Shown here: positions 3,382 through 20,000 of the stretch, piece by piece | Position numbering within the stretch: position 1 is the first letter of the stretch | Layout of the letters: each line of letters starts with the position of its first letter | Source: an uncultured virus (IMG/VR IMGVR_UViG_2820362221_000001) | Lineage: Duplodnaviria; Heunggongvirae; Uroviricota; Caudoviricetes | IMG/VR virus record: IMGVR_UViG_2820362221_000001 | Coordinates: 51,206-71,205 of that record | Length of the DNA stretch: 20,000 bases | Reading direction: 5' to 3' (one strand) | The notes under the pieces: generated by a model | Told to the model about the DNA's origin: nothing | What the model saw: the letters and a program-made list of their open reading frames with translations, nothing else | Database searches by the model: none | Program-made: the position numbers and the translations under genes

Positions 3382-4251
3382 ATGGCACAACCAAAAAACA
3401 AACTCGGAAAAAACATAAGAGATTTACGAAAAGCTCATGGCGAAACGCAAGAAGAACTCGGAAGAGCCATTAATGTTGAACATAACACTATTTCTATGTA
3501 TGAGAGTGGCGAACGGGAGCCAGCACTACAAACATTACAAGCAATAGCATCCCATTATGGTTATCCGTTAGACCAACTTATCAGAGATGATTTTTCAGAA
3601 TTAGATTTTTCAAAAATTGCTCTTACTTGGGAAAACATAGTGGCAATGATTGAAGTAATATGCCCTTTATTAGTTTCAGACAAAGCATTGAAAGACCCTC
3701 ATTTTGCAAAAGGTTACGAATATACACGCAAGATTGTTGATGGTTTCCAAACCCCTGAAAACGTAGTAATGCGAAGTATATTTGAAAGAGCCATAGAAGA
3801 ATATTCTGAATCATTAGAGAAGTCAGAAACAATGGAATCCGCTGTAAATATTCTATGGTTAATTTATATATTATACACATTACTTCCTGATGAACATTCT
3901 ATAAAAGTGGGAAAAGCTATATTATACGGCAAAGCCTATGGAAAAGAGTTTGTAAAAAATTATTTTCTTAAGAATAGTGAAAATGTAAATAAAGAAGAGG
4001 AAACAAATAAAAAGCTATATGCCCGCGACATGAGTGAATGCATATTAGCGTGTATAGAAATTTTGAAAAGTTCTCCGGAATACAATCATATTGCAGATTA
4101 TTATTTAGCGCTTAGATATATTATCGGCGTGGTAGATACAGATTATGGGCAGGAAATAAATACAATAATCGGAATGGAAATTATGTTGTCTTATTTGTCG
4201 CTGGGTAATCCATATGCTTTTGCCTATATAGAAAAAGCACTATTTTTATAA
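3382..4251 (+). CDS. XRE-family HTH transcriptional regulator with long helical C-terminal domain
   Basis: N-terminal LGKNIRDLRKAHGETQEELGRAINVEHNTISMYESGEREP is a classic HTH_3/XRE. The remaining ~220 aa are helical and of unknown function. AT-rich relative to the flanking tail genes. Confidence 0.85.
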   Translation: MAQPKNKLGKNIRDLRKAHGETQEELGRAINVEHNTISMYESGEREPALQTLQAIASHYGYPLDQLIRDDFSELDFSKIALTWENIVAMIEVICPLLVSDKALKDPHFAKGYEYTRKIVDGFQTPENVVMRSIFERAIEEYSESLEKSETMESAVNILWLIYILYTLLPDEHSIKVGKAILYGKAYGKEFVKNYFLKNSENVNKEEETNKKLYARDMSECILACIEILKSSPEYNHIADYYLALRYIIGVVDTDYGQEINTIIGMEIMLSYLSLGNPYAFAYIEKALFL

Positions 4252-4263
4252 AAAAACTGTAAT

Positions 4264-4306
4264 TTCACACTTTGTGAACTTCAATCTAAGAATTTTACTC
4301 TATAAT
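4264..4306 (+). promoter_or_regulatory. Palindromic operator candidate TTCACA-N3-TGTGAA upstream of a TATAAT -10 box
   Basis: Perfect 6-bp inverted arms at 4264-4278, perfect TATAAT at 4301-4306, and only a poor -35. Confidence 0.45.
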
Positions 4307-4351
4307 GGTGCTATATAATAAAAGCCATATATAAACAGGAGGTTGAAGAAC

Positions 4352-4750
4352 ATGAGTGAAGAAAACAAGAGACTCTATGATAGAGTTAAAGAAAAAGTCA
4401 AGGAACATAAAACCGAAATAATAATCGCAGGCATTACTGTTGCCACAATAGTGGGAGTTGTATTGCTTACAGAAAACTGGGATGTAATAAAAAAGCAGGT
4501 CTTAATAAGCGATGTAAAAAATAGCATTATAAAAAATAAAAGCATTCCCTCTTTAACTCCTACACCTATCAATATTAACATCACAAACAATGTGCCTGTT
4601 GAGAAACCTGTTGATGTAAGTAAGCATCTTCGAAATCTTCCAATGGGGTGGAACGCATCACTTGAGAAAATTAAATCCGCTTTAGAGCATGGATTTACAT
4701 TGACAGAGAATCAAACATGGGTCGATAATTATACGAAAATGTGTGCATGA
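4352..4750 (+). CDS. Hypothetical single-pass membrane protein (moron)
   Basis: AGGAGG (4337-4342) supports ATG 4352 rather than TTG 4343. Hydrophobic helix IIIAGITVATIVGVVLL, a Pro/Asn linker and a compact C-terminal domain (VSKHLRNLP...QTWVDNYTK). Confidence 0.75.
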   Translation: MSEENKRLYDRVKEKVKEHKTEIIIAGITVATIVGVVLLTENWDVIKKQVLISDVKNSIIKNKSIPSLTPTPININITNNVPVEKPVDVSKHLRNLPMGWNASLEKIKSALEHGFTLTENQTWVDNYTKMCA

Positions 4751-4765
4751 ATTGGAGGGAGAAAT

Positions 4766-4951
4766 ATGGGAAAAAACAAATTACCGGCTGTAGATTTTTG
4801 TAAAATTTTAGATGATTTTGGAGAAGAAGCTGCAAGAGATACATTGAATGATGTTAATGAAGGAAGGATAAAAGTTGAGACACTCCAAAAGTATTTATAC
4901 GATAAAAATGAAACCAGAGATGAATATGCCGAAAGAATTAAAAAAGAGTAA
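4766..4951 (+). CDS. Small charged hypothetical protein (61 aa, moron)
   Basis: GGAGGG RBS just upstream. Follows the previous ORF in operon-like spacing and precedes the terminator. Confidence 0.7.
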   Translation: MGKNKLPAVDFCKILDDFGEEAARDTLNDVNEGRIKVETLQKYLYDKNETRDEYAERIKKE

Positions 4952-12870: not shown

Positions 12871-14097
12871 GTGAAACAGGCGCAGAAAGATTTTATCGCC
12901 GGAGTCGGCGCGTTGGCGGTGGCGGACATGGCAAAGAGCGGTATACTCGCGTCGCTCACCATAGCTCAGGCGATATTGGAAAGCGGTTGGGGTATGTCGG
13001 CTCTGGCAACAAAGGCAAACGCGCTGTTCGGCATCAAGGCTGACTCCCGATGGAACGGGCGTGTGTATAACACAACAACTAAAGAATGTTATGACGGCGT
13101 GTTCACCACAGTGGACGCGCTTTTTCGTTCTTACGATAGCTGGGAGCATTCGCTTGCCGACCACTCATTGTTTCTGACCGGCTCTGCTCGGTACGCTGCG
13201 GTGGTCGGCGAAACGGATTACAAAACGGCATGTACTGCAATCAAGGCGGCAGGGTATGCCACTGCCCCGGATTACGCCGAAAAACTTATACAAATCATAG
13301 AAACATACAGTCTGACGGATTTCGATACCGTCAGCGGAAATGGAGAACATAAAATGAATCTGAAAAAACTCATACTTACAAACAACGCCTGCTACAAATA
13401 TGGCAAAACCATCACTGTCAAAGGAATCATGGTGCATAGCACGGGCGCGAATAATCCGAATCTGAAACGCTATGTCGGACCCGACGACGGTCTGCTCGGC
13501 AAAAACCAGTACAACAATCATTGGAATCAAGATACCCCAGACGGTAGAAAGGTATGCGTACACGCTTTTATCGGTAAGCTCGCGGACGGTTCTATCGCCA
13601 CATACCAGACGCTTCCGTGGAATATGGAGGGGTGGCACGGCGGCAGCGGGACTAAAGGCAGAGTGAACGACACGCATATCGGTTTTGAAATCTGCGAGGA
13701 CGGGTTGACCGACGCGGTATATTTCAACGCCGTATACAGGGAAGCGACTGAATTATGCGCTTACCTTTGTATAATGTATAACCTCGACCCGATGGCTGAT
13801 GGAGTTATAATCGGGCATTATGAGGGATACAAGCGCGGTATTGCCACAAACCACGCCGACCCCGGACATTGGTTTCCGAAACACGGCAAGTCGATGGACA
13901 CATTCCGCGCCGACGTTAAGAAGTTACTGACGGCAAATGAACCGCAGACCCCTGCCGCACCCGCTCCGTCATCGACTGCGCCGAAACCCCTGTACCGCGT
14001 TCAAGTTGGCGCGTATTCGGTCAAAGCGAACGCCGACGCTATGCTCGCCAAAATCAAAGCGGCGGGATTTACGGATGCTTTTATCAAAGCGGAGTAA
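12871..14097 (+). CDS. Endolysin: GH73 glucosaminidase + Amidase_2 + SPOR domain
   Basis: GH73 motifs AQAILESGWG, NALFGIKA, FRSY, GYATAPDY. Amidase motifs IMVHSTG, HAFIG, IGFEICE, H...HADP. Pro/Ala linker, then SPOR motif YRVQVGAYSVKANADAMLAKIKAAGF. Confidence 0.93.
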   Translation: MKQAQKDFIAGVGALAVADMAKSGILASLTIAQAILESGWGMSALATKANALFGIKADSRWNGRVYNTTTKECYDGVFTTVDALFRSYDSWEHSLADHSLFLTGSARYAAVVGETDYKTACTAIKAAGYATAPDYAEKLIQIIETYSLTDFDTVSGNGEHKMNLKKLILTNNACYKYGKTITVKGIMVHSTGANNPNLKRYVGPDDGLLGKNQYNNHWNQDTPDGRKVCVHAFIGKLADGSIATYQTLPWNMEGWHGGSGTKGRVNDTHIGFEICEDGLTDAVYFNAVYREATELCAYLCIMYNLDPMADGVIIGHYEGYKRGIATNHADPGHWFPKHGKSMDTFRADVKKLLTANEPQTPAAPAPSSTAPKPLYRVQVGAYSVKANADAMLAKIKAAGFTDAFIKAE

Positions 14098-14100
14098 TAC
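14002..14100 (+). repeat. Imperfect direct repeat, copy 1 (endolysin 3' end)
   Basis: Ungapped match to 18962-19060 at 84/99 nt (counted by eye). Confidence 0.95.
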
Positions 14101-14229
14101 TTAATCATACAAATAAACTGCGGTCACGCCTGTTATATCGACGACCGATTTGAGAGGGAAACGCGCCATTACAAAAAAGTAAGAGCGCAAGGGTGCAAGG
14201 GTGTAAAATGTTTTATATATTTGCACCCT

Positions 14230-14580
14230 TTATTCCTGAAATAACGCAAATTGGATTTTTGCGGTACGAAGAATTTCAAGCAAAGCGTGTGATTCTTTGG
14301 GAGTGCAATCGCTTAATAAGAATAAAATTTCTGCTGTTATCTCGTTATTTTCATCTCCATAAAAAAGCGTGCAAAGCGAAATATCAAGAGCGCAAGCGAT
14401 ACGGTAATATGTATCAATTTTTGCAGCCTTATTTCCGTTTTCCAGCATACTGAGAAAGTTTCGGGATACCCCGGCTGCTTCTGATAACGCTTCCTGCGAT
14501 AATTTTCGACCAATCCTTTCTTTGTAAATTTGTGAGCCGATCCATCGGTTCAATTCTGCCTGATTCATTTTTCTCATCAT
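14230..14580 (-). CDS. XRE-family HTH transcriptional regulator
   Basis: IGSQIYKERIGRKLSQEALSEAAGVSRNFLSMLENG...YYRIACALDISL is an HTH_3. GAGGT RBS. Divergent from the ATPase-recombinase operon. Confidence 0.88.
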   Translation of the reverse strand: MMRKMNQAELNRWIGSQIYKERIGRKLSQEALSEAAGVSRNFLSMLENGNKAAKIDTYYRIACALDISLCTLFYGDENNEITAEILFLLSDCTPKESHALLEILRTAKIQFALFQE

Positions 14581-14594
14581 TTTGTAAACCTCTG

Positions 14595-14649
14595 TTTATC
14601 ATAATTTTTAACCGTTAGTTTGCAGTATTTCGGTTAAAATAATGATAAA
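14595..14649. promoter_or_regulatory. Long imperfect inverted repeat in the divergent control region
   Basis: TTTATCATAATTTTTAACCG (14595-14614), 16-nt spacer, CGGTTAAAATAATGATAAA (14631-14649). Confidence 0.6.
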
Positions 14650-14705
14650 ATAGTAGGTAATTGAATTCAATAAAATTTAATTAATATGTAAGTGAGACGT
14701 AAAAG

Positions 14706-15680
14706 ATGGATCACAAATCAACAAAAATTAAATATTATTCATCCGTCAATACGCAGGAAATAGAATGGTTATGGTATCCATATATACCTTATGGACGTAT
14801 TACGGTGATACAAGGCGACCCCGGTGAAGGAAAAACAACTTTTGTGCTTCAGATTACCGCCCGTTTATCAACCGGACAACTTTTACCTGAATGTAATAAA
14901 GCGTTACCTCCGCAAAATGCAATTTACCAAAGTACAGAGGATGGGATTGCGGACACAGTAAAACCCCGTTTGATAAATGCTGCAGCAGACTGCGACCGTA
15001 TCGCATTTATTGATGACACTACATATCCATTAACGCTTGATGATGAGCGGCTTGAACATGCTATAAAAGAATGTCAGGCGCGTTTATTGGTTCTTGACCC
15101 TTTGCAGGCATTCATCAGCGCCAATTCAGATATGCATAGAGCAAATGAAATGCGTCCATTAATGAATAAGTTAGCGGGGATTGCCGAACGTACACGATGC
15201 GCTATAATTATAATCGGGCATATGAATAAAACGATTGGTACTAAGGGATTGTACCGCAGTCTTGGTTCTATTGATATTACGGCGGCGGCACGAAGCGTAT
15301 TGATGATAGGACGCTTAAAAGATGATCCGTCGATTCGTGTAATGACTCATTTAAAAAGTAATCTTGCACCTGAAGGACGATCGATAGCGTTTGAAATGAT
15401 ACCAGAAGGAGGCTTCCATTGGATTGGTTATTATGATGTGACAACAGATGACTTATTGACTGGCAATACCCAACAAGATGACTCAAAATTATTGCAGGCA
15501 AGAACTCTGCTTAAGGAAGTTTTGTCCGAAAAACCAATGTTATGTGCAGATGCTTACGCTTTATGTAAAAAATACAATATCGGGGAACGAACAGCGGATT
15601 CGGCAAAAAGACTCGAAAATATAAAATCAATTAAAATGCCGGATGGCTGGTATTGGAAATTTGAGGTTGATATTTTATGA
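14706..15680 (+). CDS. AAA_25 / RecA-fold (RepA-like helicase-type) ATPase
   Basis: Walker A GDPGEGKT, Walker B LLVLDP, plus GHMNK, GSIDITAAARSV and KSNLAPEG motifs. Short possible winged-helix-like C-terminus. Stop overlaps the recombinase start (ATGA). Confidence 0.88.
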   Translation: MDHKSTKIKYYSSVNTQEIEWLWYPYIPYGRITVIQGDPGEGKTTFVLQITARLSTGQLLPECNKALPPQNAIYQSTEDGIADTVKPRLINAAADCDRIAFIDDTTYPLTLDDERLEHAIKECQARLLVLDPLQAFISANSDMHRANEMRPLMNKLAGIAERTRCAIIIIGHMNKTIGTKGLYRSLGSIDITAAARSVLMIGRLKDDPSIRVMTHLKSNLAPEGRSIAFEMIPEGGFHWIGYYDVTTDDLLTGNTQQDDSKLLQARTLLKEVLSEKPMLCADAYALCKKYNIGERTADSAKRLENIKSIKMPDGWYWKFEVDIL

Positions 15681-17461
15681 TTAATGAAAATTATGATAAA
15701 AAAGAAGAAATCCGACGCAAATATCAACAGGAAGATAATAGTGAAAAAATATTTATTCCCGCCAAACCTAAAATGAATCCTTTTGAAAAAACAGGAACTC
15801 AACGCGCTTGCGCTTATTGTCGCGTTTCTACCGATAATATTGAGCAGGTGTCTTCGCTTGAATTACAATTGGCGCATTATAGAGAAGTCGCGGAGAATCA
15901 TCCCAACTGGGATTTATTGAAAATATATTCTGATGAAGGAATTTCGGCTACCAGTACGAAAAACCGCGACCAATTTAATCAAATGATCGAAGATTGCGAA
16001 AATGGAATATATGATATGATCGTAACAAAAAGCGTTTCCCGTTTCGCGAGAAACCTTGTCGATTGTATTTCTTTAGTGCGGCATCTAAAAAATCTTAATC
16101 CGCCGGTTGGAGTATATTTTGAAACAGATAATTTATATACGCTTTCTGAAAGCTCAGAATTAATGTTGTCATTGCTGGCAAGCTTTGCGCAGGAAGAATC
16201 GCTTAAAAAAAGTGAAAATCAAATCTGGTCATTAAAAGACCGCTTGAAAAGTGGGAAACTGCTTACTCCCGCCCTCCTCGGATATGACCGCGATGATAAA
16301 GGGAAATTAATCATCAATGAAAGCGAAAAAGCAACGGTACGGTTTATATTCGGTGCGTTCCTTGCCGGGTTTACAACGCGACAAATTGCAAATATTCTTA
16401 CAGATGTCGGCAGGTCTACCAAGACAGGCGAAACTATATGGCATGAAGGCTCAATCAATTATATTCTTAAAAACGAGCGTTATTGCGGACATGTCCTAAC
16501 ATGGAAAACTTTCACCAATGATATATTTGAACATAAAAAGAGACGCAATCACGAAGACCGCGATCAATACCTATATAAAAATAAACATCCGGCAATTATC
16601 AGCGAACAGGAATATGACGCCGCGCAAAGTCTTTTTGAAAATCGTAAACATCATATGAAGGGCGGCGTCCCGGTAATGCACGTCATTGATGAAGGTGTTT
16701 TCCGTGGGTATGTCCCGATTAACCACCATTGGGTAAACAACAATTCAAATATATACTATAATGCATCAAATCATATTGGGAACGGATCGGGCTTGCCGCA
16801 AAAGATAAAAAAAGACATTTTTAGTATGTTTGATTTAAGAGGGTATCAAATAGTACGGGAATCATTTCTTTCAGCCGTCGCGTTAGGTCCCGCGATTTCA
16901 ATTTCAAATAAATGTATTACTTTTAATACGGGCTGCATCAGGAAATTTACCGATGTTTCACACATACAAATATTATTGCATCCCATTGACCGCAAGTTGG
17001 CAATAAGACCTTGCGGAGCAAACGATGTATATAATATAAACTGGCGACCCGACCCGAATAGTCCCGTATATTCGAAAACATTTACTTGCAGACATTTCGC
17101 CACCACTCTTTTCGATATAATGGAATGGAATCCTGATTATATTTATCGGATAAGAGGAATATGGGCTGCACGTGGGAGCGACGAAATAATCGTATTTGAT
17201 TTATCTGAAGCCGCTACAGTAGTTGTCTGTCCGATAGGTGATGATTCTGCGATAAAACGTATCGTCACATTCCCGGAAGAATGGGAATCGGAATTTGGTA
17301 TGGAATTCTATGAATACGGAATCAACCATCAATTCCGTTATCTTCATTCAAATGTCGACTGGAAAGCTGATATAAAAAGCAGACCTGTCCCGGATTCCAT
17401 GCAATTCGATTTATTGTCTGAAGTTGAATTGCAGGAAATGATTGACGATCTGCGGATGTGA
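15677..17461 (+). CDS. Large serine recombinase with atypical C-terminal domain
   Basis: Catalytic AYCRVST, DEGISAT and DMIVTKSVSRFARN. Recombinase domain LGYD...VRFIF..F..G...W....I..ILKNERYCG...HPAIIS. No CxxC zinc ribbon follows. Confidence 0.92.
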   Translation: MINENYDKKEEIRRKYQQEDNSEKIFIPAKPKMNPFEKTGTQRACAYCRVSTDNIEQVSSLELQLAHYREVAENHPNWDLLKIYSDEGISATSTKNRDQFNQMIEDCENGIYDMIVTKSVSRFARNLVDCISLVRHLKNLNPPVGVYFETDNLYTLSESSELMLSLLASFAQEESLKKSENQIWSLKDRLKSGKLLTPALLGYDRDDKGKLIINESEKATVRFIFGAFLAGFTTRQIANILTDVGRSTKTGETIWHEGSINYILKNERYCGHVLTWKTFTNDIFEHKKRRNHEDRDQYLYKNKHPAIISEQEYDAAQSLFENRKHHMKGGVPVMHVIDEGVFRGYVPINHHWVNNNSNIYYNASNHIGNGSGLPQKIKKDIFSMFDLRGYQIVRESFLSAVALGPAISISNKCITFNTGCIRKFTDVSHIQILLHPIDRKLAIRPCGANDVYNINWRPDPNSPVYSKTFTCRHFATTLFDIMEWNPDYIYRIRGIWAARGSDEIIVFDLSEAATVVVCPIGDDSAIKRIVTFPEEWESEFGMEFYEYGINHQFRYLHSNVDWKADIKSRPVPDSMQFDLLSEVELQEMIDDLRM

Positions 17462-17473
17462 TAAGGAGGCATT

Positions 17474-18082
17474 ATGGATATTAATGATTCTGAATATATT
17501 TTAAATAACAATATCCCGCTGGGTGAAATTGAAGAACAGGAAATTATTGATTTGTCCGGATATCAGGTAACAAAAGGGGAGTTTTTCGCTCATCTGCGGG
17601 AGCCGACGGTCACAATATGGAAAGAACGAATCAAATTCAATATGGCATGCATACGCAGGTTTCCCGGTATTACTCATATTCAACTTTTAGTTCATCCTGA
17701 ACAGAAACGTATGATAATACGACCTTGCGTGGCGGATACTCCAGATTCGCTCCGATGGGTCAGCGGCGGCGGTGAAAAAGAAATAAAAAGCAAAGAAATG
17801 ACTTGTAGAGTTTTCGCACTCAAACTATTTGATTTAATGAAATGGGATGGAACATACCGTTACAAATTGCTCGGTAAACCGGCTGTGTGCGATAAAGAAA
17901 TACTTTTCTTATTCAAACTGACCGATTTTGAACTATATGTATCTAATACCACAAACAAACGCCGCGCTCCTTATTATCCGGAAGAATTGAAAGATTATTT
18001 TGGTATACCCGTCATAGAACATGAAGATGCTTATAAAATTGATTTGGCTGACGGGTATATCACGACAGGAGGGATGTCATGA
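17474..18082 (+). CDS. Recombinase-associated protein 1 (paralog of the recombinase C-terminal domain)
   Basis: AAGGAGG RBS. DLSGYQVTKGEFF...FNMACIRRF...HIQLLVHPEQKRMIIRPC aligns by eye with the recombinase segment DLRGYQIVRESFL...FNTGCIRKF...HIQILLHPIDRKLAIRPC. Confidence 0.85.
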   Translation: MDINDSEYILNNNIPLGEIEEQEIIDLSGYQVTKGEFFAHLREPTVTIWKERIKFNMACIRRFPGITHIQLLVHPEQKRMIIRPCVADTPDSLRWVSGGGEKEIKSKEMTCRVFALKLFDLMKWDGTYRYKLLGKPAVCDKEILFLFKLTDFELYVSNTTNKRRAPYYPEELKDYFGIPVIEHEDAYKIDLADGYITTGGMS

Positions 18083-18549
18083 AATCGTTTGATGATTTCG
18101 CAATCGGGGATATAAGCCTCGACGGATTCCAAATCGTAAAAGGTAATTATTTTAATAGGCAAATCGAACCGTATATGTCATTTCGTGATACAAGCGTTTC
18201 ATTTAATATTGCGGCATATAAGGCTCTGAATTGTGTTGCCACCGTTCAAATTATGGTTAATCAAACCACCAGAAAAATTTTGATACGACCGATAAATTCT
18301 GACGATGTCAATTCAATTACTTGGCTGAAAAATCTGGAAAACCCGAATTGCAAACCGATTGAATGTGCGCCTTTTACACGTCCGCTTTATGAAATGTGGA
18401 AATGGAAACCTAAAACGCGATACAGAGCTTACGGTAAACTTGTTAAAAATGACAAAAAACTGATGTTATTATTTGATTTTTCGGCTCCGGAGATAATTCC
18501 GCCGGGACTTCAAACTCCAAACGGTAAAGGAGGACAAAATGGAAAATAA
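18079..18549 (+). CDS. Recombinase-associated protein 2 (same domain family)
   Basis: ATGA overlap and GGAGGG RBS. Shares SLDGFQIVKG..F...FN.A...VQI.V....RKILIRP...W...C..F...LY.M.KW....YR..G....LFDF. Confidence 0.82.
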   Translation: MKSFDDFAIGDISLDGFQIVKGNYFNRQIEPYMSFRDTSVSFNIAAYKALNCVATVQIMVNQTTRKILIRPINSDDVNSITWLKNLENPNCKPIECAPFTRPLYEMWKWKPKTRYRAYGKLVKNDKKLMLLFDFSAPEIIPPGLQTPNGKGGQNGK

Positions 18550-18892
18550 TATTTGTATCTCTTTTTACTTACGTGAATCAGCGATCAGGATACATCGAAA
18601 AGTTCTTAATAAAATAAATAATCCGCCATTCGTGGAATTTTTAGTTAGCAAGAACCCAAGAGCATTTGCGGTGAGGTCGTGCGGAAAAAAAGATTTGCGT
18701 TCCTTTCGTGTTCGTGTAAACATAAACAGTAAAACAGATAAAGTCGAATTTTATAGTTTACCTCTTTGTAGAGCACTGGCTCGGTTGAACGATTGGGATG
18801 AAAACGGTTCCTACCGTGTTTATGGGCAAGCCTTTCCAAGTCAGGATGTTGCAATTTTTGACTTTTTAAGCTCAAAAATCATTAACGATTAA
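18539..18892 (+). CDS. Recombinase-associated protein 3 (more diverged member of the same domain family)
   Basis: AAGGAGG RBS, overlaps the previous stop. Shares V.FLV.....FAVRSC and L....DW...GSYRVYG.....AIFDF. Confidence 0.78.
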   Translation: MENNICISFYLRESAIRIHRKVLNKINNPPFVEFLVSKNPRAFAVRSCGKKDLRSFRVRVNINSKTDKVEFYSLPLCRALARLNDWDENGSYRVYGQAFPSQDVAIFDFLSSKIIND

Positions 18893-18961
18893 ATAACAAC
18901 CAGTGAGCCAATCTATAACGATAATTATTATATTCTTAATGTTAATATAAACGTGATTAAA

Positions 18962-19060
18962 CAGGTCGGCGCGTATTCGGTCAAGGCGAACACCGACGCA
19001 ATGTACACCAAAATCAAAGCAACGGGATTTACTGATGCCTTTATTAAAACGGAATAATAC
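18962..19060 (+). pseudogene. Direct repeat copy 2: orphan endolysin 3' fragment (SPOR tail)
   Basis: Translates QVGAYSVKANTDAMYTKIKATGFTDAFIKTE* versus QVGAYSVKANADAMLAKIKAAGFTDAFIKAE* in the intact gene. No evident RBS of its own. Confidence 0.9.
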
Positions 19061-19070
19061 CGAAATTATG

Positions 19071-19108
19071 CAGGCAAGCGGCGGATTGACATTTCCGCCG
19101 CTTGCCTG
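19071..19108. terminator. Strong GC-rich hairpin (possible terminator)
   Basis: Perfect 15-bp stem CAGGCAAGCGGCGGA / TCCGCCGCTTGCCTG with an 8-nt loop, between convergent units. The U-tract is weak. Confidence 0.6.
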
Positions 19109-19118
19109 TGTGTAGTAT

Positions 19119-19149
19119 TTAATTCGGTAGTCGGCAACTGCCGAATTAA
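19119..19149. terminator. Second hairpin between convergent genes
   Basis: TTAATTCGGTAGT-CGGCA-ACTGCCGAATTAA, a 13-bp stem with one G-U pair on the + strand. Confidence 0.45.
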
Positions 19150-19202
19150 CGCAATCTGATATATAATTATTATTTCTACGAAATATTCTCGTTTAGATAT
19201 TT

Positions 19203-20000
19203 TTATGAACGTTTCTCTAACTTTGCTTGAAGTTCAGCTATAATGGCATCTTTATCCGCAACTACGCTTTTCCATTTTCTATCAGAGCGTTTTTCACCGC
19301 GTTCTTCTGCATTTTTCAAAGCCTGCGCTTCGTCGTGACGGGCTTTGGAACGCATACGCTCTAACTCGCGAAATTCCTTTGTAGCCGATACGTGACGGTA
19401 TGCCCCGATTGCTTCTTTCATTACAGACACCCCCAATCCCTCGATTTTTTCCAACTCTTCCTCTGTTTTCGCTTTAAATAATGATAACCACAGTTCCAAA
19501 CTTTTATCCGCGCTGACCGATTGCGGCAGTTTCGGCAACTCGAAATAATGCATATTAAATTTATCTGTCAACGGCGTATGGCGCGTGACTTCAAGAGCCT
19601 GATACTCCGAATGAAATTCTTTGCATTTGAATAACTTGAAATAAATAATACTGATGATTATTGTACGCGGTAACTCGGCATAATTCTCGCCTTCGCTTAA
19701 AGCGGTTGAGTATTCGCGCGCCCAATGGAATAGCGAGCGTTCGGGAAAATCCCCCTCATTTTCGACTTGTATTTCAATATTTACGCGCTGACCGTTTACG
19801 AACATATTTATATCGAGTTTACAGAATTTGTTTCCGATAGTTTCCGGCGGTATTTCCGAATTTGTTATTTCAAATTTTTCTATGCTGTCATAGGTTATCC
19901 TGAGTAATTCCGCAACGAGTTTTTTCAGCAATTCAGGATATTGCACAAACAGCATTTTGAACAGTATATCATTGTTAAGCGTATATTTAAGTTTAGCCAT
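19203..20000 (-). CDS. Rpn family recombination-promoting nuclease / PD-(D/E)XK_2 putative transposase
   Basis: NDILFKMLF, KFCKLDI...NGQRVNIEIQV, ERSLFHWA..Y and FELPKL motifs, with a charged helical C-terminal tail. The ATG sits exactly at the window edge, so its upstream context is not visible. Confidence 0.88.
   Translation of the reverse strand: MAKLKYTLNNDILFKMLFVQYPELLKKLVAELLRITYDSIEKFEITNSEIPPETIGNKFCKLDINMFVNGQRVNIEIQVENEGDFPERSLFHWAREYSTALSEGENYAELPRTIIISIIYFKLFKCKEFHSEYQALEVTRHTPLTDKFNMHYFELPKLPQSVSADKSLELWLSLFKAKTEEELEKIEGLGVSVMKEAIGAYRHVSATKEFRELERMRSKARHDEAQALKNAEERGEKRSDRKWKSVVADKDAIIAELQAKLEKRS

Follow-up and report, generated by a model that had tools for sequence, protein, structure and literature searches.

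A serine-recombinase module nested in a prophage endolysin gene: probably a relic, perhaps of the right arm of a second phage

Why should the last codons of a phage endolysin gene be present twice, about 5 kb apart, with a serine recombinase encoded between the two copies? The question is raised by a stretch of 20,000 nucleotides (nt) from an uncultured virus of the Caudoviricetes (IMG/VR record IMGVR_UViG_2820362221_000001, positions 51,206 to 71,205; hereafter the window), in which an intact lysin gene is followed by a recombinase module and then by a second, non-coding copy of the lysin tail (Table 1). A first-pass annotation made from the letters alone had read this unit as a candidate element that targets prophage lysin genes and restored the gene on integration. 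We find that the nested insertion is real and that the inserted unit is probably a relic. The explanation that we favor, and to which we give about half of our confidence, is that the 5-kb block is what erosion has left of a related second phage's right arm, the right end of which was probably joined in a site-specific manner into the SPOR-coding end of the resident lysin gene.

The two copies of the tail align without gaps and are identical at 84 of 99 positions, which cover the last 31 codons, the stop codon and three further nt, just as had been annotated. The next match to copy 1 in the 2.59-Mb genome searched lies on C5 and is 69 nt long and 72% identical (expect value, E, 3e-4). Differences between the copies fall at third codon positions in 9 cases out of 15 (binomial p 0.03 against one third). 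Copy 2 carries five amino-acid changes, and because three of them hit positions at which 46 of 48 related lysin tails keep the residue of copy 1, we read it as decaying; the other two comprise one at a variable position and one (T for A) that gives copy 2 the commoner residue. The hairpin behind copy 2 has a predicted energy of -39.9 kcal/mol (z -8.2; 0 of 200 shuffles as strong), whereas no fold stronger than those of shuffles is predicted in the 70 nt behind copy 1 (z -1.4), which agrees with the initial description. The 3' regions of related lysins (n=57) have a median of -25.5, and since 10 of them are as weak as that of copy 1, the absence of a hairpin there is unusual and not unique. Copy 2 together with its hairpin is likely what remains of the resident lysin's own end, displaced and now decaying, as the first-pass annotation had suggested for the original end and its terminator. 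A second hairpin is present at 19118-19160 (z -4.0); it is probably a repeated element behind Rpn genes, because several other contigs of two sequencing runs match it at high identity.

The unit is inserted into a prophage that has an integrase of its own. This prophage of about 70 kb, within which the window lies, extends from a tRNA-Leu(GAG) gene (G000:C1:83977-84061), the left attachment site (attL), to a diverged half-copy of the same gene (about 154143-154195), the right attachment site (attR), and the two sites share a 13-nt core across the anticodon. Just inside its right end is encoded a serine recombinase of 548 amino acids (aa) with a zinc ribbon (G000:C1:152500-154146). Because this separate recombinase adjoins the right attachment site, the recombinase of the cassette is not the prophage integrase; an identity of the two, which had been named at the outset as a danger to the insertion reading, is thereby ruled out, and the placement of the insertion inside a prophage is borne out. 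A search for the 548-aa integrase returned only matches of about 31%, in five unannotated records, and phages pairing it with a lysin were found neither in viral contigs nor among the related loci examined. The head and packaging genes of the prophage are 53-71% identical to those of two Candidatus (Ca.) Heliusvirales records (terminase 55%, portal 68-71%, capsid 65%), a likeness judged from the identity of these genes, and the records that resemble the prophage body have a pair of recombinases beside the lysin.

In order to determine where the inserted unit came from, we examined the DNA behind copy 1 together with the gene order of related loci. Beginning 21 nt after the lysin stop codon is a relic of the helix-turn-helix (HTH)/zinc-finger gene that follows lysins in related phages. 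Among the genome's 96,838 six-frame segments, the relic ranks second (E 0.059) with a hidden Markov model (HMM) built from 22 such genes, which had been chosen with a motif read from the relic itself. An unprompted blastn search matched the same spot to one related locus (L142; 82% over 34 nt, E 0.002). Related lysin loci with enough flank (n=64) encode a serine recombinase within 3.5 kb in 62 cases and carry the zinc-finger motif in 36. When 97 module loci with 4.5 kb of upstream sequence are considered, 34 contain another recombinase there and nine a lysin; all nine of the latter are arranged as lysin, small gene, two or three recombinases and module, and in one of them (L109) the upstream lysin has the same SPOR-type tail as that of the window. 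The window looks like such an arm (lysin, HTH/zinc-finger gene, recombinase pair, module) from which the terminator, most of the zinc-finger gene and the recombinase pair are missing. The relic behind copy 1 and the arm order in nine of nine relatives are the reason why we see in the unit the likely eroded right arm of a second phage. Since a relic of the phage's next gene stands behind it, we also infer that copy 1 is the donor phage's own lysin end and not a dedicated repair fragment of the kind first proposed.

The right end of the module, as judged from sequence comparison, does behave like a recombination end. Its boundaries in relatives are located 14-135 nt after s3, the last gene of the module, in four lineages; the joint in the window is located 70-77 nt after s3, and exact identity of the right edge of the unit to copy 1 begins at 18968. 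Three loci of the main clade (L055, L265 and L268) have a common boundary 78 nt after s3 with three different flanks. A gut clade, the recombinases of which are about 44% identical to that of the window, has a fixed end 132-135 nt after s3 in 21 of 30 loci (L291-L320), the other nine being too short, from another clade or with a variant end. All 21 junctions continue at the GG of a Gly codon into the GxxS-type frame of sugar-transferase genes. These targets comprise 20 distinct alleles with a mean identity of 52% after the joint versus 86% before it; 10 of 10 downstream pieces tested match PF02397 from profile position 100, and eight of the 21 target halves reach the gene end. The end motif of this clade is absent from viral contigs and plasmids, and its junction was not found in 401 genomes, two of which had only relatives of about 70% without the junction. 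Imperfect flanking repeats of 53-78 nt and 78-89% identity bracket the module in 3 of 46 clusters, compared with none of 150 cross-locus and none of 51 same-locus controls; one set corresponds to the terminator behind a holin, one to a promoter-like stretch, and one to a terminator combined with a start signal.

Several other observations were made at these ends. In the gut clade, 13 of the 21 displaced target halves are truncated and fused to other sequence, in many cases fragments of polysaccharide genes. The end itself (L291-L318) reads AGGAGG four bases before the Met codon of the target in most loci, because of which the displaced half may be translated. Two of the bracketed modules (L024 and L073) have another integrase just downstream, as does the module in the window. 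Runs of TGCACCCC direct repeats are found just after s3 in three loci (L028, L032 and L036); these runs, mildly enriched overall, are a possible binding array. A TGCA(C/A)CC motif likewise shows only mild enrichment close to the two ends of the module (0.34 and 0.27 per 500 nt versus about 0.1), and as similar peaks occur further out we do not claim it as a binding site. Near the left edge of the module, relatives carry motifs similar to the hairpin at 14189-14230.

Is the lysin, then, the usual target of this family? We searched 117 related loci from 61 clusters, in each of which between 300 nt and 1.5 kb downstream of s3 was covered, using a profile of 48 lysin tails, and no SPOR-type tail was found in any of them, while the window as a positive control was detected at E 3e-17. 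A high-identity tail of any upstream open reading frame (ORF) was likewise absent from the downstream 2 kb of all 88 loci with enough flank; matches in 10 of them were paralogue matches of 21-40%, none to a lysin. The right flanks of relatives are sugar-transferase genes, terminators, promoters or intergenic DNA, and in L242, which at 75% is the nearest relative to have a right flank, the sequence leads directly into another gene. Targeting of lysins by the family as a whole is thus unsupported and we reject it, together with the expectation that homologous cassettes would be flanked by duplicated lysin ends. One contig is contrary to this result. It comes from run X2 and is 206 nt long with a depth of 4.2; a stretch matching 18868-18938 with seven differences is followed by a 34-letter variant of 18939-18975, after which the contig fits copy 1 from position 14014. 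At 80% likeness its tail part is placed on copy 1 and not on copy 2. Here a variant right end of about 90% identity meets, at the same SPOR position, a lysin tail that resembles copy 1. A sister strain could account for this joint, as could an independent insertion or the junction of a circle, and it keeps alive a version of the lysin-targeting idea that is limited to one lineage. In three scans of viral contigs the only close matches were the two records identical to the window, and the whole unit was not found in 40 related genomes, which gave short matches only.

The favored explanation would operate as follows. A donor end just after s3 would have become attached to the resident lysin gene at its QVG codons or close to them, so that the resident tail and terminator were pushed to the far side as copy 2, and the lysin would have been completed by the donor's own tail, copy 1. 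That tail could have been acquired through homologous recombination between the two lysins that looped out the donor body, or it could have been carried already by a small circle. Later deletions would have removed the donor terminator, most of the zinc-finger gene and the recombinase pair. The lysin would then be one opportunistic target of an end with relaxed specificity and not the target of the family, and either the cassette recombinase or the lost canonical pair may have made the joint. A number of results weigh against this explanation. The boundaries of three relatives (L063, L099 and L300) are further out and vary (263-371 nt after s3), the spacer of the window has no detectable likeness to the right ends of 61 relative clusters (best score 23, shuffles 20-29), and L242, as noted, is joined to a different gene. 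For the gut-clade element no left junction was observed, and about 7 kb upstream there is a canonical recombinase. The relic is short, and its E value of 0.059 was obtained with a motif-selected set. No match to the hairpin or the spacer, as expected of the proposed empty site, was found in 78 related lysin loci, and contigs of three runs (two of them possibly the source of the window DNA), which drop rare forms and are the only read evidence used, contain neither a joint that skips the unit nor an exact excised circle of the proposed size of about 4.96 kb. Finally, the GC content of the module (38%) is unlike that of the phage body (46%); the unit, at first simply called AT-rich, is so against that body only and not against the host genome (38.6%).

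It is conceivable, and we give it roughly a quarter of our confidence, that no site-specific step was involved at all. A second phage or an older tandem prophage would have recombined through lysin homology, deletions would have trimmed one genome down to its lysin tail, the start of copy 2 would be a chance deletion endpoint and the module a passive passenger. Several deletions (zinc-finger gene, recombinase pair) are needed in any case, none of the 117 relatives has a downstream lysin tail, the spacer shows no likeness of the kind expected for attachment sites to other right ends, and 43 of 46 clusters are without a flanking repeat, all of which would fit. Such a chance endpoint sits uneasily with a joint 70-77 nt after s3, a region in which fixed ends occur in relatives (at 78 nt and at 132-135 nt), and with the X2 contig, in which a variant end meets the same SPOR position. 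We consider it unlikely that the unit is a lineage-limited hitch-hiker of lysins, that is, a now-minimal element of 4.96 kb that captured a lysin tail, which serves as its attachment arm, and inserts into the SPOR-coding ends of prophage lysin genes. Its circle would join 18938 back to 14014 as the X2 contig does, its genes are all intact, the gut-clade end is joined at a single codon to 20 alleles within one protein family, and the bracketing repeats exceed their controls. The X2 contig is single and of low depth, comes from a run that is possibly the source of the window DNA, and is also compatible with shared ancestry; the 117 relatives, the missing empty site and exact circle, and the restriction of close viral matches to two identical records also argue against a hitch-hiker. 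A bolder form of the same idea, which we regard as quite improbable, holds that the recombinase and its three free paralogues act together as a multi-subunit integrase able to locate a conserved codon position within a variable protein family (GxMS of the sugar transferase in gut strains, QVG of SPOR here), and that in this lineage it would have become a 5-kb hitch-hiker with a captured lysin tail, hopping between prophage lysin genes that it leaves unbroken. Long duplication of a target on insertion offers a further route, by which both tails would derive from one lysin sequence, copy 1 remaining under purifying selection and copy 2 drifting. The excess of third-position differences is also expected if copy 1 stayed functional, and the changes in copy 2 include four G-to-A transitions at first positions; duplication leaves unexplained why the zinc-finger relic behind copy 1 keeps the intact phage-arm gene order, and we hold this route to be very improbable.

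Table 1. Features at the duplicated lysin tail, with the repeats that bracket the module in three related loci (positions refer to the window unless a locus is named).
Feature	Position	Strand	Basis or remark
Endolysin, 408 aa, intact; glucosaminidase, Amidase_2 and partial SPOR tail	12871..14097	+	Pfam, PHROG
Copy 1 of lysin tail, in frame, consensus-like, without terminator behind	14002..14100	+	likely the donor phage's lysin end
Relic of the last codons (CGHACYIDDRF) of the HTH/zinc-finger gene	14119..14154	+	HMM, blastn
Hairpin GGGTGCA...TGCACCC behind the XRE gene	14189..14230	not assigned	z -3.7
XRE/HTH_3 regulator, divergent	14230..14580	-	Pfam
AAA_25 (RecA/RadB-like) ATPase	14706..15680	+	Pfam
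Serine recombinase, 594 aa; Resolvase and Recombinase domains, non-canonical C-terminal domain (about 380-547)	15677..17461	+	
s1, 202 aa, free-standing paralogue of the recombinase C-terminal domain	17474..18082	+	hhalign probability 99.9, E 1e-36
s2, 156 aa, second paralogue of this domain	18079..18549	+	model pLDDT 87
s3, 117 aa, third and most diverged paralogue	18539..18892	+	
AT-rich spacer, inferred right end of the inserted unit	18893..18969	+	joint between 18962 and GG at 18968-18969
Copy 2 of lysin tail, non-coding, decaying SPOR fragment without upstream frame	18962..19060	+	likely the resident gene's displaced end
Strong hairpin, 19 pairs, terminator-like	19067..19112	+	between copy 2 and the convergent Rpn gene
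Rpn/PDDEXK_2 gene	19203..20000	-	resident prophage right arm; beyond the window a 70-aa ORF, the 548-aa integrase and attR
Bracketing repeats, L024	8222-8277 and 13411-13466		
Bracketing repeats, L027	9342-9394 and 13640-13692		
Bracketing repeats, L073	9462-9538 and 13241-13318		

We conducted domain analysis of the proteins encoded in the module. The gene set originally listed (XRE regulator, AAA_25 ATPase, serine recombinase and three small genes) was confirmed, and all of the genes are intact; the small genes, entered simply as such, can now be described as paralogues of the recombinase C-terminal domain. The recombinase matches the Resolvase (PF00239, E 1.6e-28) and Recombinase (PF07508, E 1.4e-21) families and has a catalytic motif of the YxRVS type (YCRVST), with Ser50 invariant in 31 of 31 sequences. 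The zinc-ribbon family PF13408, which five control recombinases match, was not detected in it at E 0.01, nor in residues 377-594 at E 0.1; DUF4368 gave no Pfam match, and s1, s2 and s3 matched no family in Pfam or PHROG. The family is large, as 7,978 of 7,993 scored candidates pass E 0.001, and the 120 matches listed are 56-90% identical, nearly all over most of their length. In 162 fetched loci with s1, a redundant set that includes some short loci, the recombinase is adjacent in 151, s3 is present in 118, and the ATPase occurs in 105, beside the recombinase. The best structural neighbor of the s2 model is MraZ (1n0e; Z 3.7, root-mean-square deviation 3.5, 86 aligned), a protein of the MraZ/AbrB swapped-hairpin DNA-binding fold, at a score which is within the noise level; the model had no Foldseek match at E 0.001, no neighbor with a Z of at least 5, and no sequence match in the PDB. 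The model of the whole recombinase is poor (pLDDT 56) and matches only known serine recombinases. We rejected the cassette as an anti-phage defense system, since PADLOC identified no system proteins: the recombinase, s1, s2 and s3 had no match, and the other matches were generic HTH and one weak P-loop. Among the six cassette proteins no relaxase or mobilization protein scored above cut-off, the weak MobT match of the XRE protein covering its HTH only, and neither PHROG nor Pfam gave a match to packaging or capsid-hijacking genes in the cassette, three ORFs of which are without a family. The paper listings searched, with few subscription papers, showed no description of lysin-targeting serine-recombinase elements and no account of the module, the recombinase-target supplement of PMC10083194, which may list the family, being outside that scope.

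Variants of the module were also observed. Chimeric recombinases include one that begins with a piece of the AAA gene (P0009) and two with a phage-type recombinase N-terminus (P0011 and the protein of L242:465-2216). A distant form, with no s2 seen and two extra ORFs after s3, faces a phage recombinase pair head-on (L341, L342, L343, G241, G204 and G098) and occurs in Ca. Heliusvirales records and several genomes. Elsewhere in the resident prophage, a repetitive protein of 4,704 aa with a signal-peptide-like start is encoded just inside attL (G000:C1:84180-98294, minus strand) and is apparently prophage cargo, and a low-GC insert at 3382-4951 of the window (a 289-aa XRE protein and two orphan ORFs) separates tape-measure-like from distal-tail genes.

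Insertion of a serine-recombinase element into a gene of another element is already known, and what stands out here is the module itself. It is widespread in Clostridia, it has lost the zinc ribbon of canonical integrases, and the domain in its place is repeated three times. In the gut clade its end meets 20 alleles of a polysaccharide sugar transferase at one codon in spite of a mean target identity of about 52%. If a recombinase of the cassette type makes those joints, its manner of reading targets would be new; it might also drive the turnover of capsule loci in gut bacteria and would be a candidate tool. With a compact 5-kb unit of defined ends, the insertion in the lysin gene offers a setting in which such target reading can be tested.

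Phage satellites (phage-inducible chromosomal islands, PICI; P4-like elements; PICI-like elements, PLE) are small and capsid-less and encode a recombinase, a regulator and an ATPase, as does the unit in the window; the latter differs in being located inside a prophage genome and in that no packaging, capsid-remodelling or primase gene was recognized in it. The temperate Ca. Heliusvirales-like phages of Clostridia (PV036411, PV036424 and PV036458) resemble the locus in their head and packaging genes, in the recombinase pair beside the lysin and in an adjacent module relative of about 40% identity, but in them the module is oriented toward the recombinase pair and a duplicated lysin end was not noted; the main text of PMC11283538 contains neither the word "integrase" nor "recombinase". 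Large serine recombinases include site-specific and multi-targeting ones, and DUF4368 is common, not universal, in the multi-targeting TndX-like recombinases, as described in PMC10083194. The cassette recombinase shares with them the Resolvase and Recombinase domains, the catalytic serine motif, insertion into coding sequence and variable targets; unlike them it has no zinc ribbon and no DUF4368 match, its C-terminal domain is repeated as three genes, and its activity is a prediction from sequence. Integrative and mobilizable elements (IMEs) with serine recombinases, in the account of PMC5704250, integrate inside conserved genes of other mobile elements, such as traG, maff2 and the SNF2 helicase gene of integrative and conjugative elements (ICEs) of the Tn5252 family. 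Like the unit in the window they are small recombinase-bearing units within a gene of a larger element, with the recombination module at one end; they have very short direct repeats, a disrupted target and genes for mobilization or replication, whereas here we observe an imperfect repeat of 99 nt, a whole lysin, no relaxase among the cassette proteins and a prophage as host. Decayed elements and composite islands that form by accretion (cis-mobilizable elements, CIMEs; PMC5704250) are alike in that an eroded element is nested with a resident one and a single recombination end is left; the unit described here differs from them in that it is nested in the lysin gene instead of being stacked at the resident attachment site, and in that its recombinase is intact.

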